Below, one piece after another: positions 2,014 to 59,619 of a stretch of DNA of 64,000 bases (its first letter is position 1; each line of letters begins with the position of its first letter). Source of the stretch: a virus. Location: positions 32,001 to 96,000 of IMG/VR virus record IMGVR_UViG_3300036845_000721; one strand, 5' to 3'. A model generated the notes under the pieces. It saw only the letters and a list, made by a program, of their open reading frames with translations, made no database searches and was not told where the DNA came from. The translations under genes were made by a program, and so were the position numbers.

Positions 2014-3798
2014 GTGACCGCCACGCTGACCGGCGAGCTGACCGCCGACGGCCGCCAGATCGTGCTGATCGGCAGCGGTGACGACCATGACCTGAACCAG
2101 CTGGCGACCCGGCTGGGCACCCTCACCCCGCTGCTGTCCGAGCCGGACGGCATGAAAGACAGCGGCATCCTGCTCGCCCCGGCCACCTGGCCGATGGTCG
2201 TCCAGCTCGGGCACAGCTTCCGCAACGGGCACGGCACCTTCACCCCCGGCGCCCGGCTCGCGGACTGGATGGCCGCCGAGGCCGCCCGCCGCGTCACCCC
2301 GCCGCCGCCGCTGCCGGACGGCATCGTGCCGCCCGGCGAGCGCGCCCGGGGCTACCAGGCCGAGGACGCCGCCGCGATCGCCGCGGCCGGCAAGGCGCTG
2401 GTGCTGCACGACCCCGGCCTCGGCAAGACGGTCATCTCCGTCCTCGCCCTCGAAGCCCGCCGCCGGGCCGGGCACGCCGTCTTCCCGCTGCTGGTCATCG
2501 CGCCGTCCTGGGAGGTCGCCGACGTCTGGTCCCGGCACATCCGGACCTGGGCGCCGCACTGGCCGGACCCCGTCTACTACCGGGGCGCCGCCCGCCGCGG
2601 CCTGCTCGCCGGGGCGCGCGGCAGCGACTGCGTGCTGCTCACCACCTACGCCACCGCCCGCCGCGACGCCGCGCTGGCATCCGGCCCGCTGTGCCTGCTG
2701 CGGCCCGCCACCGTCATCGCCGACGAGGCCCAGCTGATCGGCAACGACACCAGCCAGCAGTCGCAGGCGGTGCAGCGGCTCGCCCGGCACGCGGCCCAGG
2801 TGCTGCTGTGCTCCGGCACGCTGATCAAGCACTCCATGAGAAACGCCTACCCGGCGCTGAACGCGCTCGATTCGCGCAGCTTCTCCGCCTGGAAACGGGT
2901 CAGGCCGCGCTACATGGCCGTCCGGCCGGGCGACGGCGGCTACGACGAGATCATCACCGGGCTGCGGCCGGAGATGGAGGCCGAGTTCTTCGCCTGCCTG
3001 GAGGGCCAGCTGGTCCGCCGGGCCAAGGCTGACGTCGCCGGCCAGCTGCCGCCCAAGATCTACTCCGAGCGCTGCCCGGAGATCCCGCCGGAATGGCGCC
3101 GCGCCTACGACACGATGGAAGCCGACATGCTGGCCGAGCTGCCCGACGGCGGCGAGCTGCCGGTAATGTCCGTCCTCGCGCAGCTCACCCGGCTGTCCCA
3201 GCTCGCGTCGGCCGCCGCCGACGTCACCGTCACGTACGAGCCGGACCCGGCGACCGGGCTGCCCGTCGCGCACTACGCGGTCGCGCTGAAGCGGCCCAGC
3301 TGGAAGTCCGAGTCCGTGCTGGGCATCCTGGCCGAGCGGCCCGGCATGCCCGTCGCGGTGTTCTCCGAATCCCGGCAGCTGGCCATGCTCACCGGGGACT
3401 ACTGCACCGAGGCGGGGCTGCGCACCGGGTACGTCACCGGCATCGGCGGCGGCGTCACCATGGCAACCCGCAGGCAGGCCGTCGATGACTTCCAGGCCGG
3501 CCGGCTGGACGTCATCATCTGCACGGCCGGCGCCGGCGGCCTCGGCATCACCCTGACCGCGTCGAACTGCGGCGTCATGATGCAGCGGTCCTGGGAACTG
3601 GACCTGGCGCTGCAGCCCGAGGACCGGCTGCACCGCATCGGCGCCGAGATCCACCCCCACGTGGAGATCATCGACCTGATCGCGAAGAACACCGTCGACC
3701 AGCGGCGCCGCACCGTGCTGCGCGGCAAGGCCGGCCAGCTCGCCCAGTTCTGCCGCGACCCGCGCATCGTCGCCGAGCTGCTGGGCGGCCGGCGATGA
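2014..3798 (+). CDS. SNF2/SSL2-family (SF2) DNA helicase
   Basis: HDPGLGKT (motif I), VIADEAQ (II), CSGT (III), GLGITLT (V), QPEDRLHRIG (VI); GTG start after AGGAGG. Confidence 0.9.
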   Translation: MTATLTGELTADGRQIVLIGSGDDHDLNQLATRLGTLTPLLSEPDGMKDSGILLAPATWPMVVQLGHSFRNGHGTFTPGARLADWMAAEAARRVTPPPPLPDGIVPPGERARGYQAEDAAAIAAAGKALVLHDPGLGKTVISVLALEARRRAGHAVFPLLVIAPSWEVADVWSRHIRTWAPHWPDPVYYRGAARRGLLAGARGSDCVLLTTYATARRDAALASGPLCLLRPATVIADEAQLIGNDTSQQSQAVQRLARHAAQVLLCSGTLIKHSMRNAYPALNALDSRSFSAWKRVRPRYMAVRPGDGGYDEIITGLRPEMEAEFFACLEGQLVRRAKADVAGQLPPKIYSERCPEIPPEWRRAYDTMEADMLAELPDGGELPVMSVLAQLTRLSQLASAAADVTVTYEPDPATGLPVAHYAVALKRPSWKSESVLGILAERPGMPVAVFSESRQLAMLTGDYCTEAGLRTGYVTGIGGGVTMATRRQAVDDFQAGRLDVIICTAGAGGLGITLTASNCGVMMQRSWELDLALQPEDRLHRIGAEIHPHVEIIDLIAKNTVDQRRRTVLRGKAGQLAQFCRDPRIVAELLGGRR

Positions 3799-4024
3799 TC
3801 CTCCGGACAGTCATGCAGTACTCGGACAGCCTGCGCATCCGGGGCATGGTGCGCCGCTGGCTGGGCGTCCCAGCGCCGTGCGGGATCTCCCATGAGGACC
3901 CGTACAACCCGTGCCTGCCCGGGGAAGACCACCGCGGGCTGTGGTGCGCCACCTGCGGACTGCGCCAGCGGCCCGCCATCACTACCGGAATTTCCGGCCG
4001 GCCGGAAAGATCAGGAGACAAGCC

Positions 4025-5048: not shown

Positions 5049-5509
5049 CTTGGCGATGGCACGAGGACATCCGCTGCATGATCTGGCATGGCGAGCCCGG
5101 TGACCCGGACCCCTGGCTGGCGACGGCAGCGGCGCACTGGCACGGCCGGCTTCCCGGGTACCAGCCAGGGTTGGGGATGCCGCCGGGGCCGGAATGGCCG
5201 GAAGTACCGTCGTACTGGCCGGAAAGCGAAGGCATGCCGGACGCCGAGCAGGTGAAATGGCTGCAGTACCGGCTGGCGCTGGAGCAGCAGCGCTGCCGGC
5301 AGTACCAGGCGGACCTGATCCGGATGCAGGACCGGGTGCAGCCGCAGCAGCCTGTGCAGCCGCCCGCGCGGCCGGAACCGGAATCCCTGGCGCAGCGGTT
5401 CCTGCCGCCGCGCTGGCTGGTAACAGCGTGGATGATCCTGCTGCTGCTGACCGGGGAAGCCTTCCTGGCCGTGCTGCTGGGGGCGGCGCTCCGGGCGGTG
5501 GGATCGTGA
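5045..5509 (+). CDS. hypothetical protein with C-terminal transmembrane helix
   Basis: C-terminal WLVTAWMILLLLTGEAFLAVLLGAAL; overlap-coupled to neighbours. Confidence 0.6.
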   Translation: MTWRWHEDIRCMIWHGEPGDPDPWLATAAAHWHGRLPGYQPGLGMPPGPEWPEVPSYWPESEGMPDAEQVKWLQYRLALEQQRCRQYQADLIRMQDRVQPQQPVQPPARPEPESLAQRFLPPRWLVTAWMILLLLTGEAFLAVLLGAALRAVGS

Positions 5510-5714
5510 GCTACGACCCGGATTTCGCGGTTTTCCCGCGCCGGCTGCCGTCACGGCCCCGGCTCCGGGCGCGGACACGGCTGCGGCACGCCGTGCGCAA
5601 CGCGCTCTGGGCCGCGAGCGGCCGGCTGTGCGGCTGGCACGGACCCGGCCGCCGGATCGCGTTCGAGGCCGGGCACCTGCTCGGCGAGACCGGCTGGAAG
5701 CTGAGGGACCCGTC

Positions 5715-6227
5715 ATGATCACCGTCCTCGGCGGCGACCCCGGGAACACGGCCGGGTTCCTGCTGGCCGGCTGGCGTCCCGGCGAGCGGAAGGCCGCGTT
5801 CGCCCGCGCCTTCCAGTGCGACGGCGACTCCGCTGCGCTGCTGCTCGCCTGGATCTGCGACAGCGAGGCGGCTCTCACCCCGGGCATCACCGCCGTGCAG
5901 ATCGAGGCGTGGGACAGCCGCCCCCTCCCGGGCGGGCTGCACGGCGCCAGCCCGTCCGCCATCCAGGCCCAGATCAGCGACCTGGAGGCGGTCCTGGCCG
6001 GGCGCGGGGTGCCGTGCGTTATCCGGCCCGTCGCCGACGTCAAGACGTGGGCCGGCGACGAGCGGCTGAAGCGGGCAGGGCTGCTGGACACGGTCAGCCC
6101 GGCGCCGATGCGGCACGCGAAGTCGGCCGCCTGGCACTGCCTGTACTGCGCGGTGCACGACTGCGGCCTGCCGGATCCGCTGTCCCGGCGGGCTGGCGTA
6201 CAGGAGGCGCGGGATGTGCCAGGCTAG
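5715..6227 (+). CDS. RuvC-like Holliday junction resolvase
   Basis: N-terminal VLGGDPGNTAG, central VQIEAW, C-terminal RHAKSAAWH; replication operon context. Confidence 0.75.
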   Translation: MITVLGGDPGNTAGFLLAGWRPGERKAAFARAFQCDGDSAALLLAWICDSEAALTPGITAVQIEAWDSRPLPGGLHGASPSAIQAQISDLEAVLAGRGVPCVIRPVADVKTWAGDERLKRAGLLDTVSPAPMRHAKSAAWHCLYCAVHDCGLPDPLSRRAGVQEARDVPG

Positions 6228-6356
6228 GGGAACAGCAACGGGAACCCGCCACTGCCAGGAAACGGGTCCCCGTGATGCTGCTCAGACCACCGCACCGCCC
6301 GCTGAAGGGGTGAGGATCTTGACCACCACTGTCATCATAACTGACAGGGGGCCGGA

Positions 6357-7265
6357 ATGACCGCCGGCACGCCAGCAGGCAACGGCCAGGAGCTGTCCGG
6401 CCAGCATGTGCTCTACCGGCACTGGGCCAAAGACGGCACCCTCCTGTACGCCGGGCGGACCAACAATCCCCCGGCCCGGATGCGCAAGCACCGGTCAGAA
6501 GCTGACTGGTGGGCGTCCGTCTGCTGGACTACTTACGAGAAGTTCCCGTCCCTGGAAGCGCTCAAGGCCGGGGAGGCCTGGGCGATCGAGCACGAAAACC
6601 CGCAAGGGAACATTCAGGGACGGGTGTTCCAGGCTCCCCCGCGCAAGAGCCCGGAGCCGGGCACCGACCCTTATGTCCCGGTAAGAACCCGGGACCTGAG
6701 ACCAGACCTGGAGCTCATCCACCCGCTCTCGCGCGAGTTCTCCGTGTACGGAGGCGGCGACACCGTTCGGCGCGCCCGGGAATGGGCGCTGAACCGCCGG
6801 TACTACCTGCTGGACGGGCTGCCGGCCTGCGCTCACGCCTTCTACCTGATGAGGTGCCCGAACGCCGGCCGCTGCATCCCGCACGCAGACCACACCCAGG
6901 TGTGGGTCCCGGCCCCGGACTTCAGCAGGTTCGAGACCTACAGCGGTGCAGAGCCGCCGTTCATCCTCACGCAGCCGTACCGCGGCAGCCTGCCGGAGGG
7001 CGATGAAGACGACGCACCGGCAGCCGGGCTGCCCGGGCAGGCAATCAGGCTCCCGGCAGAAGTTACCGCTTACGCCGCCGCTCACGGGCTCGGTGCCGAG
7101 ACCTGGATCTCCGACGCCTGGTACTACCCGGAGCACTGCGTACCTGTCCGGCTCACGCCGCACGGAGGCGGCTACGTATCGTTCCCCCTGGAGACGGAGA
7201 CGCTGAGCCTGATGTGCGCCTGGCGGGACGAGTGGCCGGAAGCGGTACCGGAATGGCTCAAGTGA
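6357..7265 (+). CDS. GIY-YIG nuclease-domain protein with C-terminal domain of unknown function
   Basis: VLYRHW...LLYAGRTNNPPARMRKH...EAWAIEHENP matches the GIY-YIG core. Confidence 0.7.
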   Translation: MTAGTPAGNGQELSGQHVLYRHWAKDGTLLYAGRTNNPPARMRKHRSEADWWASVCWTTYEKFPSLEALKAGEAWAIEHENPQGNIQGRVFQAPPRKSPEPGTDPYVPVRTRDLRPDLELIHPLSREFSVYGGGDTVRRAREWALNRRYYLLDGLPACAHAFYLMRCPNAGRCIPHADHTQVWVPAPDFSRFETYSGAEPPFILTQPYRGSLPEGDEDDAPAAGLPGQAIRLPAEVTAYAAAHGLGAETWISDAWYYPEHCVPVRLTPHGGGYVSFPLETETLSLMCAWRDEWPEAVPEWLK

Positions 7266-10200
7266 TGGCTGACCTCATGCCGCCGCCCGTCGCCTGGCTG
7301 TCGGATATCCACCGGGCCTACCTGAACGAGCACGCCGTCACCGACGAGATCATCGCCACTGCCCGGATCCGGTCCGAGGGCGAGGTAATCGTTTTCCCGT
7401 GGCGGGACAGCGACCTGGTCACCGAGCAGCGCCGCGTGTGGCCCGAGCCCGAGGACGGGCTGCCCGAGGGCATGCCGAAATACTGGTGGGAGGCGGGGCA
7501 CTCCCCACACCTGTGGGCTGTCCGGCCCGTTACCGGGCTGCCCGCCAGTGCCCCGGTAATCATCGCCGAGGGCACCAAGCAGTCCCTGGCCGTCGCGTCC
7601 TGGGCGCCCCTGGAGTACGCCGTCTACGGGATGCCCGGATGCGATATCGGGCTGGTATCGATGCTGCAGCGGGCCGGGCTGGACCGGTTCGGCGGCCATC
7701 CGGTGGTCATCATGCTCGATGCCGACGCGGCCGAGAACCTGAACGTGTACGAGGCCGGCGAGAAACTGGCCGAGCTGCTGGATCTGGAAGGCGCCGCGGC
7801 GATCGCGTTCACCCGGCTGCCCGCTCAGGGCAAAGACGGGATCGATGACTTCCTGGGCCTGGTGGAACCGGAAGGCCGCCGGACCGAGGTGCTGGCCAAG
7901 CTGCTGTCCCGGGCCGAGCCGAAACCCGCCGGGCGCAGGCCGGTGCGGCGCCCGGTCAGCGAGGAGCCGCCGGACACGGGCGGGCTGCCCGCGGTCACCG
8001 TGAACAAGAACCGCCGTGAGGTCATCCACGAAATCCTGTGGCATCTCCAGCAGCGGTGGAACGGCACCGAGCTGTTCTGCTACGGAGGGGCGCTCACCCG
8101 GCTGCGCGAGACAGCGACAGAGCCGCTGGAGGAAGGCGCATTCCTGCGCTGGATGGTAGAGGCAGTCTGCCCGGTCAAGTACACCCCGGCCGGCCCGGCC
8201 AGCCCGGCCCGGTATGAGCCCACCTGGCCGGACCAGCAGACGGTCAAGGCCCTGCTGTCCTCCGGCGACGAGTTCGCCCCGCTAACCCGGGTCAGCCGCA
8301 CCCCGTTCATCCGGGCCGACGGCACCGTCTGCGCCAAGAACGGGTACGATCCTGCCAGCCAGACCATGCTGATCACCGGGAACTCCGGAATGGACCAGCT
8401 GGACATCCCGCACGAGCCGACACAGCAGCAGGCCATCACCGCCGCCGGGTACCTGCTGGACGAGTGGCTGGGCGACATGCCGTTCCGGGACCGGGCCAGC
8501 CGGGCCGGGGCGCTCGCCCTGGTGCTCACCCAGTTCATCCGCGGCCTGGTGCCGCTGGCCCCGCTCGCGGTCATCTCCGGACTGCAGCCGGGCGTCGGGA
8601 AGGGGCTGCTGGCCGACTGCGTGCAGCTGATGATCGCCGGAGAGGCCGCGCCGCCGCTGCCCTGGAGCCAGGTAGACGACGAGGAGAACCGAAAGCAGAT
8701 CACCAGTGCCTTCAAGGCCGGCGCTAACCTGGTCTGGTTCGATGAGGCGCACCAGATCGAGTCGCTGGCGCTGTCCCGGGCCATTACCTCGCTGACCTAC
8801 GCCGACCGGATCCTCGGCCTGACCAAGCAGGTCAGCTGGCCCAACCAGGTCACCTGGCTGGCTACCGGAAACCAGGTGGCGGCCAGCTCGGACATGGCCC
8901 GGCGGGCCTACTGGATCGAGCTGTACCCGGACGTGCCCGACCCGGAGAACCGGCCGGAATCCGATTTCAGCCACCCGGACCTGCGCGGCTGGACACTGGA
9001 TGCCCGGCCCCGGCTGATCACCGAAGCGCTGACCGTCATCCGAGCCTGGTACGCGGCCGGCCGGCCGCCGCATTCCCGCGGGCTCCTGATGGGATCGTTC
9101 GAGACCTGGGACAAGATGATGTCCGGCATCCTGGCCTACGCGGGGATAGACGGGTTCCTCGGCAACCTGGCCGCCAAACGGGCCGAGCGCGACGTCACCG
9201 GGGGGTACTGGGCCGAGCACGTTGCCTGGCTGCGCGCCCAGTTCGGCGCCGGGGAGTTCGCCGCCCAGGACGTGAAGATCCGGGCCGCCGGCTCCGGCGG
9301 GGCCTGGGATGCCCCGCCCCGGCTAGAGGACTTGAGCCGGGAAGGGTGGACCCGGGTGCTCGGCCAGGCGTACGCCCGGAATGCCGACCGGTGGTACGGG
9401 CAGTTCCGGCTGCACCGGTCCGGTGAGGGATTCGGGCACTCGGCACGCTGGACGATCCAGCAGCGGGGTGAAGAAACGGCACTCCCGGCTCCAAGAGACA
9501 ACACCCTGCCTGACCTGGGCGGGGGGAACAGGGGGAACGAATCCGGGCCGCCCGCGAACGGGTCGTTCGCTGCCCCAACCGCAAACGAAACCCTGCCTGA
9601 GCTGGGAGGATACGGTAATGGGGGAACAGAAATGCGTTCCCCTGCTACAGAAACCATGCCTGAGCTGGGCGGGCTTCCGGAAAACAGCGGTTTCGGGGGA
9701 ACAGGGGGAACTACTACCCCAGGTGTCCATGTGCGCGCGGGTGCGGGCGCACACGCGCGCGTTACGCGCGAGGGGGATTTCGTTCCCCTTGCTCCCCCTG
9801 TTCCCCCGAACCCCCCTGTTGCCGGAACCGGCCCGGTGCTCGGCTTCGACCTGGAAACCGGCGAGGCCGGGAAGCTGTTCACCTACACCCCGCACGATGA
9901 GACCGGCTACGTCCGGCTCGCCGGGATCACAGGCCCGTCCGGCGCGAACATGATCACCGGGGTACCGCAGCTGCTCGCGATGCTGGGCATGGCGCGGCGG
10001 GCGTACGGGCACAACATCCTCGGCTTCGACGGGCTGGCGCTGGCCCGCTGGGCGGGCGCGGACTGGGACTGGTTCTGCGACCGGGCGGTGGACACCGAGC
10101 TGATCGCCCGGCAGGCGTTCCCGCCCCGGTCCCGGGAGTCCGGCACGTCGGCCGACAAGCTGGGCCTGGACGCGGTGGCGGCGCTGCTCGGGCTGTCCGG

Positions 10201-11605
10201 CAAGACCGACGAGCTGTCCCGGCTGGCCGCTAAGCACGGCGGCTACGACATGATCCCGGCCGACGATCCGGAGTACCTGGCCTACCTCCGCGGCGACCTG
10301 GACGCCACCCGCGGCGTCGCCGGGCAGCTGCTGCGGCACTACGACGAGGACGCCTACCTGCCGCGCGAGCACGAACTGGCCCGGATCGCCGGGCACATGG
10401 CGCTGAACGGGCTGGCGGTCGACATCCCGCTGCTGACCCAGCGGTACGAGGCCGGCGAGCAGCGCAGGCAAGACGCCCTGCAGGCACTGCACGACGGCTG
10501 GGGCCTGCCGCTCGGCCGGGCCGTGATGCGCGGGCGCGGTCACGCCCGGCACGAGGAGACCGAAGGGTTCACCGCGCCGCTGGCCACCGCCGAAGGCCGC
10601 GCCTGGCTGGCCGCCCAGTGGGAGCGGTACCAGGTCCCGGACCCGCCGCTGACCGCGAAGGGACTGCTGGCCATCGGCAGCGACGAGCTCGCGGTCATCG
10701 GCCGCGACCCGGACTGCCCGCCGGACCTGCGGGCGATGCTGGCGCTGATGAACATCGTCACCACCACCCGGTCGGTCTACCAGACCGCGCGGGCGTGGCT
10801 GTGCCCGGACGGCAAGGTGCACCCGAAGATCAGCTTCCGGCAGGCGTCCGGCCGCTGGTCGGTCACCGACCCCGGGCTGACCGTGTTCGGCAAGCACGAG
10901 GGACGGCACGTGGAACGGGACATCTTCACCGCCAGCGAAGGCCGGGTGCTGATGAGTTTCGACCTGGAGCAGGTGGACATGCGGGCGATCGCCGGGCACA
11001 GCCAGGACCCGGCCTACATGGAGCTGTTCAGGCCCGGCCGCGACGCGCACTCCGAGATCGCCGCCCGGGTGTTCGGCGAGGCGCCCCGGGACGCGAAAGG
11101 CCGCCACCCGATGCGCCAGCCCGCGAAAGCCCGGGGCCACGGCTGGAACTACGGGATGGGTCCGGACCGGATGATCCGCGACGGGGTCGACCCGGACATG
11201 GCCTACGGGTTCGACAACGGGATGAAAGCCGCGTTCCCGGTGCTGTGCGACTGGCGCGAGGGCATCCGCGCCATCGCGGCGGCCGGCGGCATCCTGGACA
11301 ACGGGTTCGGCCGCCGGATGCGCGCCGACCCGCGGCACGCGCACACCGTCGCCCCGGCGCTGATGGGCCAAGGGGGAGCCCGCGACATCATGGGCCAGTG
11401 CCTGCTGCAGATCGACCCGGCGCTGCGCCCGTACATGGTGCTGCAGGTGCACGACGAGGTAATCCTGGACGTTCCGGAGGGCGATGCCGGGGAGGCCGCC
11501 GCCGAGGTCCGCCGGGCCATGACCTGGACCTGGCGGGACGTCCCGATCCTGTGCGACCAGGCCGGCCCCGGCCGGTCCTGGGGCGAGCTGTCGGGGGACA
11601 AGTGA
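7262..11605 (+). CDS. fused Toprim primase / P-loop (SF3-like) helicase / family A DNA polymerase with 3'-5' exonuclease (~1447 aa)
   Basis: Toprim IIAEGTKQ, MLDADA, GKDGIDDFL; Walker A GLQPGVGKG, Walker B VWFDE, LATGN; exonuclease FDLETG, GHNILGFD, YLRGD; PolA motif A SFDLEQVDMR, motif B RQPAKARGHGWNYG, motif C LQVHDEV; no internal stop in the ORF track. Confidence 0.9.
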   Translation: MMADLMPPPVAWLSDIHRAYLNEHAVTDEIIATARIRSEGEVIVFPWRDSDLVTEQRRVWPEPEDGLPEGMPKYWWEAGHSPHLWAVRPVTGLPASAPVIIAEGTKQSLAVASWAPLEYAVYGMPGCDIGLVSMLQRAGLDRFGGHPVVIMLDADAAENLNVYEAGEKLAELLDLEGAAAIAFTRLPAQGKDGIDDFLGLVEPEGRRTEVLAKLLSRAEPKPAGRRPVRRPVSEEPPDTGGLPAVTVNKNRREVIHEILWHLQQRWNGTELFCYGGALTRLRETATEPLEEGAFLRWMVEAVCPVKYTPAGPASPARYEPTWPDQQTVKALLSSGDEFAPLTRVSRTPFIRADGTVCAKNGYDPASQTMLITGNSGMDQLDIPHEPTQQQAITAAGYLLDEWLGDMPFRDRASRAGALALVLTQFIRGLVPLAPLAVISGLQPGVGKGLLADCVQLMIAGEAAPPLPWSQVDDEENRKQITSAFKAGANLVWFDEAHQIESLALSRAITSLTYADRILGLTKQVSWPNQVTWLATGNQVAASSDMARRAYWIELYPDVPDPENRPESDFSHPDLRGWTLDARPRLITEALTVIRAWYAAGRPPHSRGLLMGSFETWDKMMSGILAYAGIDGFLGNLAAKRAERDVTGGYWAEHVAWLRAQFGAGEFAAQDVKIRAAGSGGAWDAPPRLEDLSREGWTRVLGQAYARNADRWYGQFRLHRSGEGFGHSARWTIQQRGEETALPAPRDNTLPDLGGGNRGNESGPPANGSFAAPTANETLPELGGYGNGGTEMRSPATETMPELGGLPENSGFGGTGGTTTPGVHVRAGAGAHARVTREGDFVPLAPPVPPNPPVAGTGPVLGFDLETGEAGKLFTYTPHDETGYVRLAGITGPSGANMITGVPQLLAMLGMARRAYGHNILGFDGLALARWAGADWDWFCDRAVDTELIARQAFPPRSRESGTSADKLGLDAVAALLGLSGKTDELSRLAAKHGGYDMIPADDPEYLAYLRGDLDATRGVAGQLLRHYDEDAYLPREHELARIAGHMALNGLAVDIPLLTQRYEAGEQRRQDALQALHDGWGLPLGRAVMRGRGHARHEETEGFTAPLATAEGRAWLAAQWERYQVPDPPLTAKGLLAIGSDELAVIGRDPDCPPDLRAMLALMNIVTTTRSVYQTARAWLCPDGKVHPKISFRQASGRWSVTDPGLTVFGKHEGRHVERDIFTASEGRVLMSFDLEQVDMRAIAGHSQDPAYMELFRPGRDAHSEIAARVFGEAPRDAKGRHPMRQPAKARGHGWNYGMGPDRMIRDGVDPDMAYGFDNGMKAAFPVLCDWREGIRAIAAAGGILDNGFGRRMRADPRHAHTVAPALMGQGGARDIMGQCLLQIDPALRPYMVLQVHDEVILDVPEGDAGEAAAEVRRAMTWTWRDVPILCDQAGPGRSWGELSGDK
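9503..9805. repeat. iteron-like repeats inside the helicase-polymerase linker
   Basis: ACC(C/A)TGCCTGA(C/G)CTGGG at 9503, 9590, 9653; GGGAAC at 9524, 9533, 9622, 9697, 9706; inverted GTTCCC at 9636, 9782, 9800. Confidence 0.55.
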
Positions 11606-49633: not shown

Positions 49634-50212
49634 TCACGCGACCTTCAGGCCGGCCGCGTTGCGGCTGCGCAGGATCGATCCGATGTACGCGGAGATGTCT
49701 TCCAGCTGCCCGCTGGTCAGCGCGTCCAGCTCACGGTGCAGGACCGCGATGCGCGCGGCATCGGCCGGCTTGACGGTGGTCACGTTGTCCGTGCCGCCGG
49801 CAGGCTTGGCGGCAGGCTTGGCGGCCGGCGCGCGCTTGACGGTTTTGCCGGCCTTCTCGGCATCGGTCTTGACGGTCCGCACACTGGCCTTGACCACTTG
49901 CGCAACCTCGCCGTATTCCATGCCGGCTTCCCTGAACAGCTCCACCAGGAACGTACGCGCGGCGGTATCGGGCTTGAATCCGTCCGAGTGCAGTTCTGCA
50001 CTCACGTACTCTGACCAGGTCTCGTAACCCATGAGGTAGTGAACCTGCTGGGCGTACGCGGTAACGATCATCGCGCCGAGCGTTTCGATCGCGTTGCCGG
50101 CGGTCGTGATCTGCGCATTGATTGCCGCAGTCACGCGCGGACCGTATTCCTCATTGTTCGCGTAGCGGAAGTTGTGCGGGTAGGTCGTGGTCTCACTCAT
50201 GATGACTCCCAT
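49634..50212 (-). CDS. HTH DNA-binding protein, first gene of the leftward array; candidate repressor
   Basis: MGYETWSEYV motif followed by GMEYGEVAQVVKASVRTVKTD HTH; Ala/Lys-rich linker. Confidence 0.7.
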   Translation of the reverse strand: MGVIMSETTTYPHNFRYANNEEYGPRVTAAINAQITTAGNAIETLGAMIVTAYAQQVHYLMGYETWSEYVSAELHSDGFKPDTAARTFLVELFREAGMEYGEVAQVVKASVRTVKTDAEKAGKTVKRAPAAKPAAKPAGGTDNVTTVKPADAARIAVLHRELDALTSGQLEDISAYIGSILRSRNAAGLKVA

Positions 50213-50898
50213 GGTTTGGGGGGTTCCAAGTGCAGATTTGCACTTGGCGCGCGGGCCAGCCGGAGTCTGATTCCGTTGCCTACGTCCATAGGTCGCGCGG
50301 TTACGTTAGGCAATCCGCCATACCGCCGCTAGGCGATACCGATTGCAGCCCGTAGCCTGTATGCGACTGTCGCGTATCCATTGGCTGGCCCAATTGCTTA
50401 GGGGACACGCGCGGCGGTTTGCTAATCCGTCCGCATGCCGTGACCTCATATCGCACTACGCGCGATAGCGGAGGATTTCACCAGGTAACCGATAGGGGAC
50501 GACCGGGTCGTGGCAAAGAGGCATGCGCGCATTCCGCACCCTTGCAATGCTCGCCAGTCACGCTAACGGCTTGGTGTCGTCACTCTGGAGTTTTCAAGTT
50601 GCGGTGCCGGCTGGTGGCCGGCTTGCTCTCACCCTCCGGGCGGAGGGCTTGCCCGTAGCCTAATGGCAATTTGGCAATATGGCAACCTGGTAAGCCGAAA
50701 ACAGGCCTTATTTCATGATCAACATGCCCTCTGACCTGGCATTATAACAGGTTGATAACGGTCTTGAGACTAGGGGCAGAATGTCCGATATGTCCGGTTT
50801 AACGAGTGCAGATCTGCACTCGGAGATGCCTTATCGGAGCCATCCTCCGGTTAAGTTTTCGCTGGTCACAGCATCGCGCTTTTACCAGGTAGCCGGCT

Positions 50899-51044
50899 CC
50901 CACGGTCGGAGGTGGCCCACGGTCGGAGGTGGCCCACGGTCGGAGGTGGCCCACGGTCGGAGGTGGCCCACGGTCGGAGGTGGCCCACGGTCGGAGGTGG
51001 CCCACGGTCGGAGGTGGCCCACGGTCGGAGGTGGCCCACGGTCG
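50899..51044. repeat. 17-bp tandem repeat CCCACGGTCGGAGGTGG, 8 full copies plus 10 bp
   Basis: Units start at 50899, 50916 ... 51018, partial at 51035; non-coding region. Confidence 0.95.
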
Positions 51045-51069
51045 TTAGCATGGCTCACAGCTGCCCGGT

Positions 51070-51148
51070 AACTATCTTCCACGGCATGCACTTGGCATAG
51101 GGTGGCTTACCGTGGGATGGAACTATCTTCCACGGCATGCACTTGGCA
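51070..51148. repeat. 28-bp direct repeat AACTATCTTCCACGGCATGCACTTGGCA, 2 copies
   Basis: 51070-51097 and 51121-51148. Confidence 0.9.
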
Positions 51149-51669
51149 GGTAACTCGTTAGCAGCAGAGCGCAGAAATCGAACACAGATCCGCCACATTT
51201 TTGTTCGATTTTTTGGTGCGCACCTCCCAGGATGCCCGCTTCACGCGATTCTCCCCCCGAACACGATTACCCAAAGGGCGAGGTCATCGAACGATTTGTC
51301 GAAATATGGCTTTGACCTGCAAGGGAATAAAGAAATGCCTGGTGGCGCTATACCTGGTCACGCGTCGCCAATGCCGTGAACTGTCCGGCAGGCAGGCAAC
51401 GGTCGGAGACCATTTTCGAGTAGATGTTCGATAGGGTTGGCTGGAACGACCAGAAACGGCCGGAGACCGCCGCCGGCGCCGCACCCGGAGATAGCTTCCG
51501 CGGAATGGATCCCGCGTGACCGCGAGGGGTGTAAGTATGTTCCGCGGAATGCACGTGGCAGCGGTTCGTGCCCGGATCGTTCACACTCGCAACGACTCTG
51601 TGACCGGGACCCGTGACTGTGACGTCGCTTTTCAGTGTGACTTTGTGATCGTCGCAGGCAGCGGCCCGG

Positions 51670-51748
51670 GTGTGACCGGGGTGTGATTTTGAGGCCCGGA
51701 CCCCGGATCACACCTCGGATCACACTCCCGGTCACACCCCGATCACAC
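51670..51748. repeat. GTGTGA x2 facing TCACAC x4, ~11-12-bp period
   Basis: GTGTGA at 51670, 51681; TCACAC at 51708, 51720, 51732, 51743. Confidence 0.75.
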
Positions 51749-52920
51749 CCCCTGACCTGGGGTTTCCCCGCCGGAACAGAATAGGTGTCATAATGGTTAT
51801 GTGGCAACGAGGCAACCAGCAGGCAAGCGCGAACAGCTGGGCAGCAGGCTGTGTGCTGGGGACGGCTGCCTAGCTCGGGTACCTTACGCAGGCCGGGGAA
51901 GGCCTCGGTACTGCGATGCGTGCCGTCGGGAAAAACTCCGGGAGCAATGGAACCGATCAGGGCGCGATAGATATGCTCGCGGGTACAGGAAACCGAGGCA
52001 GAGTCGCTTGTGCAGCGGCGGCTGCGGGCGCCGGGTTAACTACCGGCCGGAGCGGGGTTCGCGAGAGCAGCCGGTATGTCGGGATTGCCGTAAAAGGGCT
52101 CGTCAGCACGTCTGCGAGCAGTGCGGAGCGCCCTTCGAGGCGTTCGGTAAGCCGCGCCCCGGGAAGTCTCACAAGTTCTGTTCGGATTGCCGTGCTGTTG
52201 CTCGCCGACGGCGAGGAAATAGCCGGTCTTCATCCAAGGTGTCATCGCGGGCCAGGAAGCTGCGGCATACTCTGACCTGGGATTTCGTAACGGATGAGCA
52301 GATCTTCGAGCGTGATGAGGGGGTCTGCCGGGTGCCGGAATGCGACCTGGGGCCGATCCGGTTTAACTTGAAATGCCCGCACCCGCTTAGTCCGACGATC
52401 GATCACATCATCCCGCTGAGCAGAGGCGGAACGGACACCGCACCGAATAAGCGCTCTGCGCACTGGCTCTGCAATGTCCGGCGCGGGAACCGGATGCACC
52501 CAGATGACTTGCAAGTACTCTCTCCCGAGCTGGCCCCGCTAGGGCTGTTGCCTGAGCGGAGGCAGCCAAAGCCGCCGGAGTGGTGCGCGAAATGCGGAAA
52601 ATCCCAGGTCAAGCGTTCAGGAGCTGTTTGCACGAGCTGCGCGTCAGCCACCCGGGCCGAGCGGCAGGACAGGATTCTGGCATGTCGCGGGGCTGGGATG
52701 AAGTGGGCAGATATAGCCGTCCGGTTCGGGCTGAGCAGCGCCGGCGCAGCGTACAACGTCGCATACGGCCTGGGAGTTCACCGCTGTAGGTATTGCGGGT
52801 ACCTGGTACCACCCCGTCATGCCTGCGTCACACCCTCCGTCACACCTGCGTCACACCCCTGGCCTGCGGTTTCCCTGCCGGGAACAGAATCGGTGTCATA
52901 ATGGTTATGTGGCAACGAGG
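51743..52920. mobile_element. HNH gene bracketed by a ~70-bp imperfect direct repeat (29-bp identical core)
   Basis: Repeat copies 51743-51812 and 52851-52920; core GGTGTCATAATGGTTATGTGGCAACGAGG at 51784-51812 and 52892-52920. Confidence 0.65.
51801..52901 (+). CDS. HNH endonuclease with multiple zinc ribbons
   Basis: TIDHIIPLSRGGTDTAPNKRSAHWLCNVRRGN; several CxxC pairs; codon usage less GC3-biased than flanks. Confidence 0.9.
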   Translation: MATRQPAGKREQLGSRLCAGDGCLARVPYAGRGRPRYCDACRREKLREQWNRSGRDRYARGYRKPRQSRLCSGGCGRRVNYRPERGSREQPVCRDCRKRARQHVCEQCGAPFEAFGKPRPGKSHKFCSDCRAVARRRRGNSRSSSKVSSRARKLRHTLTWDFVTDEQIFERDEGVCRVPECDLGPIRFNLKCPHPLSPTIDHIIPLSRGGTDTAPNKRSAHWLCNVRRGNRMHPDDLQVLSPELAPLGLLPERRQPKPPEWCAKCGKSQVKRSGAVCTSCASATRAERQDRILACRGAGMKWADIAVRFGLSSAGAAYNVAYGLGVHRCRYCGYLVPPRHACVTPSVTPASHPWPAVSLPGTESVS

Positions 52921-57212: not shown

Positions 57213-57551
57213 ATGACGGATGCCCGGGACCCGCTGTTCGTCCCGGCCGCCAGGTGCGGTCGCGGGACGATCGACGGCGCCGTCTGGCGGCCCGGTGACC
57301 CGGTCAAGCACCTCGGGCCGCCGGGGCACCTGGGCATCCGCCTGTGGTCGAAGCTGTTCAGCACCCGGTGCGGTCTCGGCCCGCAGCCGGAGCCGGGGTA
57401 CGGCCGGTGGCAGCCGCAGGAGCACGACGGGTTCCGTGAGGATGACGACTACTGGTGCCCGCCCTGCCTGGACCAGGCGGGCATCAGCTACGAGCTATGG
57501 CCTGACGATGAGCCGGAGGGAGGCGGCAGTGAGCAGCGACCAGGACCGTGA
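57213..57551 (+). CDS. hypothetical protein
   Basis: Between the helical protein gene and traB; overlap-coupled. Confidence 0.5.
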   Translation: MTDARDPLFVPAARCGRGTIDGAVWRPGDPVKHLGPPGHLGIRLWSKLFSTRCGLGPQPEPGYGRWQPQEHDGFREDDDYWCPPCLDQAGISYELWPDDEPEGGGSEQRPGP

Positions 57552-59619
57552 CGGCCGGGAGACCCCGCCGCGTGACGCCGGCGGCCGGTGGACCCCGTCC
57601 GGGCGCGATGACGGCTGGCGGCAGGAGGACAGGCCGGAACAGCCGGAGCGCCCGCATGCCCCGTCGCTGGCCCGGCACTGCGGGGAGAGCTCGCTGGTAG
57701 CCGTGCTGTCGGTGCTGCTGGCGGCCTACCTGCTCCCGGCCTCGGTGCCGATGTGGATGCCGTTGTCGGCGCTCATCGCGGTCACCACGGTCACCTGGTA
57801 CGTGACCTTCCAGATGACCCGGTCGCGGCACCTGTCCGGCTACATGCTCGCCTGGGGCCTGCTGATCACCGGCTGGTTCACCCTCGCCCGGACCGACGGC
57901 GTGCACGAGCAGGTCATCGCCCTGCTGTTCATCCCGGCGATCGTGCTGGCGTTCCTGGGCGTGCCCGCCATTAGCCGCTACCGGGAAGTGCTCGCCGCCG
58001 GGGACCAGGCCGCGCGGGACAAGGCCGGCACCGCGATCCTGCGGCACTGGGAGCAGGTCCTGGAGGCGCACGGGGCGCACGGCGCTAAGGTGCTGGACGT
58101 GGTGCGGCACGACGGCAGCCTGGAGATCCGCGGCCGTCTCCCCCGCGCCGTCCCGGGCCGGACCACGATGACCTTCGCCCAGCTGCAGGCGCTCGGCCCG
58201 GAGATCGCGGTGAGCGAGCGCCGCAACGAGGACGGGATCTACTTCTCCAAGCCCGAGGACGGGTCCGCCGCCGACTTCGTGCTGCACGTCCGGGACCGGC
58301 GGTCCGGGCAGCGGGCACCGGTCCACCTGCCGGTCCGGCACGTTCCGCTGTCCGTCAACCGGTCGTTCGGGGTGGGCGTGCTGGACAGCGGCCGGGAGTA
58401 CGGCACGCTGCTGCGCGAGAAGCACATCCAGATCATCGGCGTTACCCGGGTCGGCAAGAGCAACCTGATCAACGTGTTCATTGACCGGATCGGCGGGATG
58501 ATCGACGCGCTGATCTGGATGATCGATATGAAGGGCGGGAGGACCAGCCGCCCGTGGATCGTGCCGTGGCTGCAGGGGCTCACGCCGCGCCCGGTTATCG
58601 ACTGGATGGCCACCACCCGCGAGGAAACCAAGATCATGCTGGACACCGCGCTGCTGGCGGTGCAGACCCGGGCCGGGTACCCGGGGTTCGAGAAGATCAT
58701 CCCGTCCCGTGACACTCCGGCGATCATCCTGATCTGCGACGACGTCGGCCGCTGTTTCGGGCACGGCGTCCGGGAAGGCGGCATCAGCAACTACGGCATG
58801 TCCCAGCTCGGCGCGCAGTTCACCGAGCTGGCCGGGTCTGAGGCCGGGGTGCTGATCGGGGCCGGCCAGCGGGCCAACGTGGAGCTGTGGGGCGGCACCG
58901 CGATGAAGTCCCAGTCCGAGCTGCGGTTCGGGCTGCGGGCCACGTCGTCGGCGGACGGCGCGCAGGTTTTCCCGGATAACGCGCAGGCGGCCCGGATGGT
59001 CGCCGGGCTGCGGGACAAGGGCGACTGCCTGGTCAAGGACGGCCCGGACATCAGCCCGGTCGTGCACCTGTACCGGGTCGGCGACGCGGACCGGATCACC
59101 AAGCGGGCGCTGTGGGCCGGCGACTACCGCCCGGAACCCGAGCGGCGGCTGATCGAGGCGATGGGCAGCGCGTATTCCGAGCGCTGGGACCGGTCCGCGA
59201 GCCTGCTGGACGAGTGGCGGCGGACGGCCGGCATCCCGGAGCCGACGGAGCCTGGCGGGCCGGATGACGACGGCGACGGCGATGATTCCGATCCGGATGA
59301 CTGGGACGCGAAGCGTTTCGAGCGCGAGTTCGGCCGGATTGTCGCGCAGGTGCCGGACGCGGAGGCGCCGGCCGACCCGCGCCGGAAGGTGATGTGGCGG
59401 ATCCTGCGCGACGCCGGCTGGGCGGGCCTGAGCGTCAAGTCCATCGTCATCCGGCTGGACACCGCGGGGGCGATGACCCGGCGGGACGTCGTGCACCACT
59501 GGCTCAAGGAAGACGAGCAGAAGGGCTGGGTGCGCCGCGGGAAGCGCGGTACCCAGCCGGTGTGGATCTGGTCCGGGCACGGCGATGCGGACTACATACT
59601 GGACGCCGAGGCGATGTAG
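57529..59619 (+). CDS. traB: FtsK/SpoIIIE-family conjugative DNA translocase (actinomycete TraB type)
   Basis: N-terminal TM helices; Walker A GVTRVGKS; WMIDMKGG; Walker B ILICDD; GQRA; C-terminal winged helix; GTG after GGAGGGAGG. Confidence 0.8.
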   Translation: MSSDQDRDGRETPPRDAGGRWTPSGRDDGWRQEDRPEQPERPHAPSLARHCGESSLVAVLSVLLAAYLLPASVPMWMPLSALIAVTTVTWYVTFQMTRSRHLSGYMLAWGLLITGWFTLARTDGVHEQVIALLFIPAIVLAFLGVPAISRYREVLAAGDQAARDKAGTAILRHWEQVLEAHGAHGAKVLDVVRHDGSLEIRGRLPRAVPGRTTMTFAQLQALGPEIAVSERRNEDGIYFSKPEDGSAADFVLHVRDRRSGQRAPVHLPVRHVPLSVNRSFGVGVLDSGREYGTLLREKHIQIIGVTRVGKSNLINVFIDRIGGMIDALIWMIDMKGGRTSRPWIVPWLQGLTPRPVIDWMATTREETKIMLDTALLAVQTRAGYPGFEKIIPSRDTPAIILICDDVGRCFGHGVREGGISNYGMSQLGAQFTELAGSEAGVLIGAGQRANVELWGGTAMKSQSELRFGLRATSSADGAQVFPDNAQAARMVAGLRDKGDCLVKDGPDISPVVHLYRVGDADRITKRALWAGDYRPEPERRLIEAMGSAYSERWDRSASLLDEWRRTAGIPEPTEPGGPDDDGDGDDSDPDDWDAKRFEREFGRIVAQVPDAEAPADPRRKVMWRILRDAGWAGLSVKSIVIRLDTAGAMTRRDVVHHWLKEDEQKGWVRRGKRGTQPVWIWSGHGDADYILDAEAM

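Follow-up and report, generated by a model that had tools for sequence, protein, structure and literature searches.

A Pas55-type primase-helicase-polymerase fusion gene in a 131-kb virus record and a candidate cis-acting element in its linker DNA

Described fusions of primase, helicase and polymerase

The closest described relative of the gene considered here is Pas55 of Actinoplanes phage phiAsp2 (NC_005885), a protein of 1415 aa that has been in GenBank since 2004 and was named, in silico, as a fusion of superfamily 3 (SF3) helicase, DnaG primase and family-A DNA polymerase (PolA) (Kazlauskas et al. 2016, PMC4889955). The gene lies in a 64-kb stretch of DNA (the window, i.e. the whole stretch analyzed) taken from the 131,444-bp IMG/VR virus record IMGVR_UViG_3300036845_000721 (CheckV completeness ~62%, G+C ~71%). 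Its product is a Pas55-type fusion, a kind already described computationally; added here are a census of the type, a pattern of cassette exchange, a set of atypical active-site residues, and a structured DNA element in the linker of one subclade. The preliminary description of this DNA had taken the architecture for an unfamiliar one, which was not borne out: Pas55 was described in 2016, a characterized analogue exists in PfPREX, and the arrangement is widespread in metagenomes.

Pas55 was the only full-length homologue among 50,697 phage records. The two proteins aligned end to end by tblastn (aa 43-1440, 38-40% identity, E 0), and phiAsp2 genes pas53 to pas57 are syntenic with the window (helicase, small gene, fusion, ~212-aa gene, 305-aa gene). 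Domain order, the three modules, the neighborhood and the PolA signature (GHGWNYG, DLSQVDMR) are the same. The differences are that phiAsp2 has 58.6 kb whereas the record of the window has at least 131 kb, that the window PolA is nearer to those of fusions with an archaeo-eukaryotic primase (AEP), and that the window linker carries an iteron/inverted-repeat element while that of phiAsp2 has none.

PfPREX of the Plasmodium apicoplast is likewise one polypeptide with an N-terminal Toprim primase, a helicase, and a 3'-5' exonuclease plus PolA (Czernecki et al. 2023, PMC10201439). It is a functional analogue of the window protein that is proteolytically processed, and a common origin of the two fusions is not implied. 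The helicase of PREX is of the T7 gp4/Twinkle-like type (SF4), not SF3, and its PolA falls in the Aquificae-like cluster #8, with Phe at position B3. The window helicase has an SF3 (D5-like) fold, and assignment to PfPREX-type polyproteins was rejected.

With the T7 replication proteins gp4 and gp5 the window protein shares its best-matching primase fold and the combination of a primase and helicase ring with a family-A polymerase. In T7, gp4 combines a zinc-binding domain with an SF4 helicase of 5'->3' polarity, and the polymerase is a separate protein engaged through non-covalent contacts and thioredoxin; the window protein, by contrast, has no zinc finger, an SF3 helicase and a polymerase attached by a covalent tether. 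Fold matches to whole gp4/Twinkle chains had root-mean-square deviations (rmsd) above 20 Å, while the gp4 primase fragments 1nui_A and 6n9u_F gave the same Z at 3.0 Å, and the gp4/Twinkle matches are therefore read as resting on the primase domain.

The primase-helicase half resembles P4 gp-alpha, SaPI5, NrS-1 and vaccinia D5, all of which combine a DnaG-type or AEP primase, a D5-type SF3 helicase and a C-terminal DNA-binding domain; in P4 alpha these are DnaG-type primase, SF3 helicase and winged helix (PMC4889955). P4 alpha and the D5 family are without a polymerase, their Walker A motif reads GK[S/T] where GK[N/G] stands here, and the likeness to the D5 family is one of fold. The other three-way fusion that has been named, gp55 of Lactococcus phage 1706, joins AEP primase, SF3 helicase and a family-B polymerase (PMC4889955). 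It has the one-chain logic in common with the window protein but differs in primase and in polymerase family.

Reading frame, domains and proposed activity

The plus-strand frame 7214/7262..11605 is free of stops, and 7262-11605 translates without interruption into the 1447 aa claimed in the preliminary description. The TGA of the upstream GIY-YIG gene (7263-7265) overlaps both in-frame starts, GTG at 7262 and ATG at 7265 (TGATG). The start at 7262 is reasonable, since homologue alignments begin at about residue 8-13.

The preliminary description had raised the possibility that a stop was lost near 9480-9830; this, or a frameshift in the linker, would make the fusion an artefact of assembly or gene calling. 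In favor of an artefact, the sequence comes from a metagenome-assembled contig, and the linker has repeats and atypical codon usage. However, a Logan contig from a soil metagenome run (X1) matched window positions 8800-9868, i.e. the whole linker and part of the exonuclease domain, with 0 differences and 0 gaps. Run X1 is possibly the source sample, and the match is therefore a check by an independent assembler only; it excludes an assembler artefact and not a read-level error, the latter being excluded by the comparative data, since relatives keep the same fusion. A single frame is maintained in phiAsp2, a cultured phage, and at 40 further loci, and more than 110 full-length protein clusters came out of separate samples. 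The artefact explanation is thus close to refuted. Joints in run X1 were disregarded (the contigs involved were of low likeness and belonged to other organisms, and the sides were <30 nt), and a second run (X2) held only short conserved pieces of the stretch, with no bearing on habitat.

Each domain call of the preliminary description proved right, and a primase, a helicase and a proofreading polymerase in one chain stands as the best reading of the gene. For the primase, Pfam DUF3854/Toprim_3 was matched at aa 96-198 (E 8e-5 to 2e-6) and PHROG family phrog_16213 ('DNA primase') over aa 14-235; families termed 'DNA polymerase/primase' matched aa 333-657 with their C-terminal part. The Toprim motifs previously noted (EG..K, DxD) lie in AEGTKQ (aa 102-107) and LDADAA (152-157), followed by GIDDFL (193-198). 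An AlphaFold2 model of aa 1-710 was built with 42 homologues as input (pLDDT 90.3). Its residues 7-228 matched the T7 gp4 RNA-polymerase domain 6n9u_F (Z 15.2, rmsd 3.0 Å, 181 residues) and bacterial DnaG 2au3 (Z 15.0). Among 43 homologues E103, D153, D155, D195, D196, Y74 and Q56 were invariant, and position 58 was R in 42 and K in one. Pfam, the fold (Z 15) and the invariant acidic residues thus identify an N-terminal DnaG-type Toprim primase, as in Pas55. The first aligned residue of the model, residue 7, corresponds to gp4 residue 72, which is past the zinc-binding domain, and with only six residues preceding it there is no Cys4 domain.

The middle domain searched alone gave no Pfam match even at E 10, and its identity came from the fold instead. 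Model residues 239-648 matched the SaPI5 primase-helicase 7ola_C (Z 13.7), vaccinia D5 and MPXV E5 (Z ~12.5), and NrS-1 CTR, this SF3 set falling at Z 12-13.7. The P-loop helicase with Walker A and B motifs that had been claimed is thereby confirmed as a central, D5-like SF3 helicase, though one with no Ser/Thr in Walker A. Invariant in the 43 homologues were G440, G444, G446, K447, D494, E495, N537, R547 and R548. Residue 448, after the Walker A Lys, was Asn in 38 and Gly in five, the window protein included, and never Ser/Thr; GK[N/G] characterizes the helicase family at large, while the Walker B, sensor-1 and Arg residues are invariant. The alignments with PriRep1-dsDNA 7pds_A (model 234-710) and ASFV PrimPol (model 342-710) run through the all-helical segment at aa 575-710, a candidate DNA-binding or origin-binding domain.

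Exonuclease and polymerase together occupy aa 860-1447 of the same open frame, and phrog_17 ('DNA polymerase') spans aa 857-1444. The three exonuclease motifs and PolA motifs A, B and C were found where the preliminary description had put them. Exo I is FDLET (aa 862-866), Exo II HNILGFD (917-923) and Exo III YLRGD (1008-1012), and the D/E, N/F/D and Y/D columns of the three are each at least 90% conserved in 43 homologues, as expected of a proofreading domain. Pfam DNA_pol_A (PF00476) was matched at aa 1182-1442 (E 4e-32); the NCBIfam search returned nothing beyond sub-threshold Pol I matches. In a residue-level alignment to Taq Klentaq the motif A Asp, the motif B Arg/Lys/Tyr, HDE of motif C, TGR and motif 6 are kept. 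Two positions deviate, the steric-gate Glu (Taq E615) being Asp and B3 (Taq F667, Klenow F762) being His. The divergence of motifs A and B pointed out earlier is real; it is not peculiar to this gene but a clade-wide signature, with His at B3 in 60 of 65 PolA clade members and Asp at the steric gate in 63 of 65. D29 gp44 has Phe at B3 (RKYAKTVNFGRVYG). None of the 19 major clusters in the published PolA classification consulted corresponds to the His-B3/Asp-gate clade, and in the literature library searched, including the 2023 reclassification and the virioplankton PolA papers, no mention of His at PolA 762/B3 was found.

These data are read, with a probability of roughly 80%, as a natural single-chain fusion of a zinc-finger-less primase, a D5/P4-alpha-type SF3 hexameric helicase and a tethered proofreading PolA. 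By analogy with SF3 homologues, the helicase module would form a hexameric ring and translocate 3'->5' along the leading-strand template, the N-terminal primase domains would prime the displaced (excluded) strand, and the tethered proofreading polymerases would extend both strands. The covalent tether to the ring would give processivity, replacing a clamp or the T7-style contact between helicase and polymerase. The replicase probably also opens the origin, since its N-terminal two thirds resemble initiators (P4 alpha, DUF3854 CyRepA, AEP-SF3 Reps), and the helical domain that ends the helicase half may recognize iterons. In cyanobacteria, proteins with DUF3854 have been shown experimentally to act as the Rep proteins of plasmids (PMC10079941). 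Were one chain to prime, unwind, polymerize and proofread, it would be the most compact DNA replisome conceivable, an attractive model for coupled unwinding, priming and synthesis, and a possible reagent for primer-independent isothermal amplification. The conserved residues are now defined, with three unusual active-site features flagged: Walker A GK[N/G], the B3 His and the steric-gate Asp.

Several points weigh against this reading. The primase is without the zinc-binding domain that T7 gp4 and DnaG use in template recognition. The helicase has Gly (Asn in most relatives) in place of the Mg2+-coordinating Ser/Thr of Walker A, from which an atypical ATPase chemistry is predicted, and the polymerase has the steric-gate Asp and B3 His, which may affect its kinetics. 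The hexamer, the helicase polarity and the division of labor among six tethered polymerases are drawn solely from homologues. The record is ~62% complete, and further replication genes may lie beyond it. No biochemical work on any Pas55-type fusion was found in the literature.

An unlikely alternative is that the protein acts mainly as an initiator like P4 alpha, bulk synthesis being left to host Pol III while the PolA extends the first primers or processes Okazaki fragments. The N-terminal two thirds are most like plasmid and satellite Rep-type proteins, and of the primase-helicase clusters closest to it some two thirds are without a PolA. The gene holds the sole PolA on the 131-kb record and no DnaB-type helicase (DnaB_C) was found there, which agrees with the single-chain replicase; a single-stranded DNA-binding protein (SSB, PF00436) and a clamp were not found either, which would suit an initiator, although with the record ~62% complete the SSB and DnaB misses are not evidence of absence. 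Conservation of the proofreading exonuclease suggests, to the contrary, high-fidelity bulk synthesis. A replicative helicase is always encoded, and a primase in 98% of cases, by phages that have their own DNA polymerase, and on that ground the fusion is read as a coupled complete set (Kazlauskas 2016, PMC4889955).

Table 1. Positions of the replicase gene, its domains and motifs, its linker DNA element and the adjoining endonuclease gene in the window.
Feature	Position	Strand	Details
Whole replicase gene	7262..11605	+	1447 aa; start GTG 7262 or ATG 7265 (in frame); stop 11603-11605
DnaG/T7 gp4-type primase RNA-polymerase domain	7280..7945	+	aa 7-228; Pfam DUF3854/Toprim_3; no zinc-binding domain before it
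D5-type SF3 helicase (D5N-like collar and P-loop ATPase)	7976..9205	+	aa 239-648; fold matches
Helicase Walker A GLQPGVGKG	8579-8605	+	aa 440-448
Helicase Walker B WFDEAH	8735-8752	+	aa 492-497
Helicase sensor-1 Asn	8858-8875	+	N537
Helicase Arg-Arg	8894-8911	+	R547, R548
All-helical C-terminal domain of primase-helicase half	8984..9391	+	aa 575-710; helices in model
Disordered Gly/Pro/Thr-rich linker, ~150 aa	9440..9840	+	aa ~727-860; aberrant codon usage
Iteron and inverted-repeat cluster inside linker DNA	9498..9827	.	Repeat and fold analysis
Box CCTGCCTGA[CG]CTGGG, three copies	9505, 9592, 9655		Linker DNA
GGGGGAAC, five direct copies, and inverted GTTCCCCC copies	9782-9817		Linker DNA
35-nt inverted-repeat arms	9675-9709 / 9793-9827		Flank (CG/CA)n tract 9730-9772
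3'-5' proofreading exonuclease domain	9839..10300	+	Exo I 9845-9859, Exo II 10010-10030, Exo III 10283-10297
Family-A polymerase thumb, palm, fingers	10301..11602	+	TGR 10844-10861, motif 6 11369-11386
PolA motif A SFDLEQVDMRA	10955-10987	+	aa 1232-1242
PolA motif B RQPAKARGHGWNYG	11114-11155	+	aa 1285-1298
PolA motif C QVHDE	11444-11458	+	aa 1395-1399
GIY-YIG endonuclease gene (context, outside the enzyme)	6357..7265	+	phrog_16880, phrog_3312 E ~1e-16; Pfam GIY-YIG E 3e-4

Distribution and cassette exchange

More than 110 full-length clusters (90% identity) were found among metagenome proteins, at 36-73% identity. Close homologues were present on about 45 IMG/VR contigs, most of them phiAsp2-like genomes of ~57-64 kb; the closest (57-60% identity) were on contigs of 108-122 kb. 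Among the loci fetched from IMG/VR and GTDB genomes the three modules were fused in 41 and split into adjacent genes in 13, while 23 had the primase-helicase alone and two were cut by a contig end. A further 142 newly retrieved representatives (50% identity) included 28 in which primase, this helicase and PolA are fused, and 58 with primase-helicase alone. Fused, split or polymerase-less relatives occurred in Streptomyces, Knoellia, Gordonia, Brachybacterium and Blastococcus genomes. The type, earlier a curiosity of one cultured phage, is now seen to be common in soil actinophages and present in actinobacterial genomes. The preliminary description had allowed that the architecture might be already widespread and characterized; widespread it is, with the clusters and the 41 loci above, and biochemically characterized it is not.

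Natural split forms with adjacent genes were found in Gordonia, Brachybacterium and Streptomyces phage TP1604, from which it appears that the modules cooperate whether fused or unfused. Such forms, which nest among fused ones, also bear on the possibility that the gene specifies a polyprotein or is expressed in two ways, linker proteolysis, an internal start or a frameshift yielding a separate primase-helicase and polymerase that work as in T7. The long disordered linker would be open to proteases, the strong nucleic-acid structure in it could pause ribosomes, and the primase of PfPREX is matured by proteolysis, according to a reference cited in PMC10201439. Nevertheless, a scan for promoters and terminators across 9300-9950 gave no such site, and no protease gene was identified beside the replicase gene. 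The open frame is kept in 41 loci, which implies selection for read-through translation. Separation of the two halves is accordingly considered improbable, and the intact single-chain fusion is preferred.

A maximum-likelihood tree was made of 67 PolA domains, and state changes were counted from its starred branches. DnaG-SF3 fusions, AEP-D5 fusions, fusions of Toprim with other domains, and split forms were interleaved on it, requiring a minimum of at least 11 state changes for the DnaG-SF3 label and at least seven for the AEP label. The window protein and Pas55 were both inside the His-B3 clade, in separate subclades, and the window PolA was nearer to AEP-fused PolAs (68% identity) than to the PolA of Pas55. 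Between the window protein and its relative P0002 the PolA was 93% identical, the N-terminal 710 residues 66%. The interleaved tree and these unequal identities indicate that a single PolA clade has many times had the primase-helicase cassette before it replaced or detached.

Membership of the D29-like PolAs (cluster #9 of Czernecki et al. 2023) was considered and rejected. The alignment of D29 gp44 to the PolA query was confined to aa 369-595 (28% identity), and the protein formed a very long outgroup branch on the tree, in addition to having Phe at B3. The D29-like actinophage cluster is listed with 'no known partners' (Czernecki et al. 2023, PMC10201439).

The plasmid collection held no full-length homologue, just separate helicase or PolA matches and an AEP-type fusion on the linear plasmid pS1D4-14.2 of Streptomyces sp. 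S1D4-14. The latter (locus L002, 3541-7881) is annotated as a 'P4 family primase' of 1446 aa and has a C-terminal PolA of the same clade. An open frame of ~1530 aa in Streptomyces sp. NRRL S-455 (locus L023) also has this PolA at its C-terminus. Judged by their sequences, these two add independent cases of a primase-helicase-PolA fusion, carried by plasmid or chromosomal elements. The chromosome of Synechococcus sp. MIT S9507 (NZ_CP138970.1) has a 1477-aa frame at 5398-9828 of locus L021, with a Toprim domain 34% identical to aa 96-230, a different middle domain and a PolA of the His-B3 clade (38% identity). Since it joins Toprim to a His-B3 PolA, the fusion theme extends to cyanobacteria. Over all the relatives found, the fusion is ancient and widespread.

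Linker DNA and gene neighborhood

Homologue linkers vary in length and sequence. In the window gene the fraction of G+C at third codon positions (GC3) is 0.61 in the linker but 0.93 outside it, and the rare Pro codon CCT accounts for six of 18 in the linker against one of 90 elsewhere. The window has nine GGGGGAAC copies, six of them within 290 bp of linker, and the exact 17-mer GGGGGAACAGGGGGAAC occurs twice in the linker, each time in another reading frame. In single-stranded DNA folding the linker segment had a z of -6.5, and two controls taken from elsewhere in the gene gave +0.3 and -0.6.

The same layout was found in relatives with ~57-64% protein identity, with fold z of -9.4 (L024), -5.5 (L092) and -4.35 (L091). 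The arms of the inverted repeats vary in sequence (GGGGGAAC, GGATGGAT, ATCCCTCCC) and keep their complementarity, and in L024 the CCTGACCTG box is present in both orientations. That inversion, the 17-mer in two frames, and the shift in GC3 and CCT point to a constraint on the DNA, not the peptide, and on these grounds TLP[DE]LGG as a peptide docking motif was rejected as the primary explanation.

Clustered direct repeats inside the initiator gene, as in an iteron origin, suggest that the linker DNA is a phage replication origin or another cis-acting site, a tentative proposal with somewhat less than an even chance, which adds to the single-chain reading and does not compete with it. In the origin case the C-terminal domain of the helicase would bind the iterons, and the adjacent inverted repeat with the alternating purine-pyrimidine tract would melt or extrude. 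The iterons, the 35-nt inverted repeat, the clustering of GGGGGAAC, the fold z and the peculiarities of codon and frame argue for it, as do the shared layout in the three relatives, whose arms change yet stay complementary, and the two-way CCTGACCTG box of L024, a box that is not present in AEP-type fusions (some of which retain the (CG/CA)n tract). There is a precedent in the lambda origin, the iterons of which lie in the portion of gene O that codes for the inter-domain linker of the initiator. Compared with lambda, the window origin is a prediction, an AT-rich region is not obvious, and a large inverted repeat surrounds the (CG/CA)n tract.

Other findings speak against an origin. The element is restricted to the window subclade: it was not present in the phiAsp2 linker (z +1.06) or in most of that clade, and a family-wide occurrence was rejected, since only eight of 39 linkers exceeded the control maxima for direct repeats and six of 39 for inverted repeats. 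An AT-rich unwinding element is not evident, no GC-skew switch coincides with the linker, and the repeats might instead mark a recombination boundary, act as an operator or form a structure in the mRNA. On the pattern of lambda O, the linker DNA is most economically read as an origin or as some other cis-acting site within the initiator gene. Linker DNA of the subclade would then double as a conserved structured cis element, with the origin as its likeliest though doubtful identity, made up of CCTGACCTG iterons and covarying inverted repeats around (CG/CA)n. A candidate origin inside the gene would, if true, make a self-contained replicon of it; gene and origin would be one portable replicon cassette, which would explain the repeated swaps of DnaG-SF3 and AEP-D5 modules before a dedicated PolA clade.

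At the split-gene junction of Streptomyces phage TP1604 (L089) overall structure was not significant (z -1.2). The intergenic stretch at 3706-3810, with the primase gene on one side and the Pol I gene on the other, contains a 15-pair hairpin with one mismatch (GGGTGGTGCAGCATC...GATGGGTGTTGCACCACCC).

The gene context is that of a phage replication module, with a recombination-type exonuclease, an SNF2 helicase and the GIY-YIG endonuclease upstream, and a ~213-aa gene and an Rv2525c-like lysin downstream. It is probable that the gene is the replicase of a large soil actinobacterial phage or phage-plasmid-like element. The GIY-YIG gene product has 302 aa, with its endonuclease domain N-terminal, and may be a homing endonuclease parked beside the polymerase gene.

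On the same record, classed as viral, an FtsK/SpoIIIE (TraB-like) translocase of 799 aa is encoded at window 57220-59619 (+; phrog_31069, E 1e-22); given this translocase, the element may be a phage-plasmid or conjugative hybrid. Between 13382 and 50212 the minus strand carries ~37 kb of mainly short ORFs, and six of seven ORFs tested from this block (six of them >300 aa) had no PHROG match or matched only families of 'unknown function'. The G+C content dips to 0.60 at window 50001-52000 (~0.70-0.75 elsewhere), where the minus- and plus-strand gene blocks meet.

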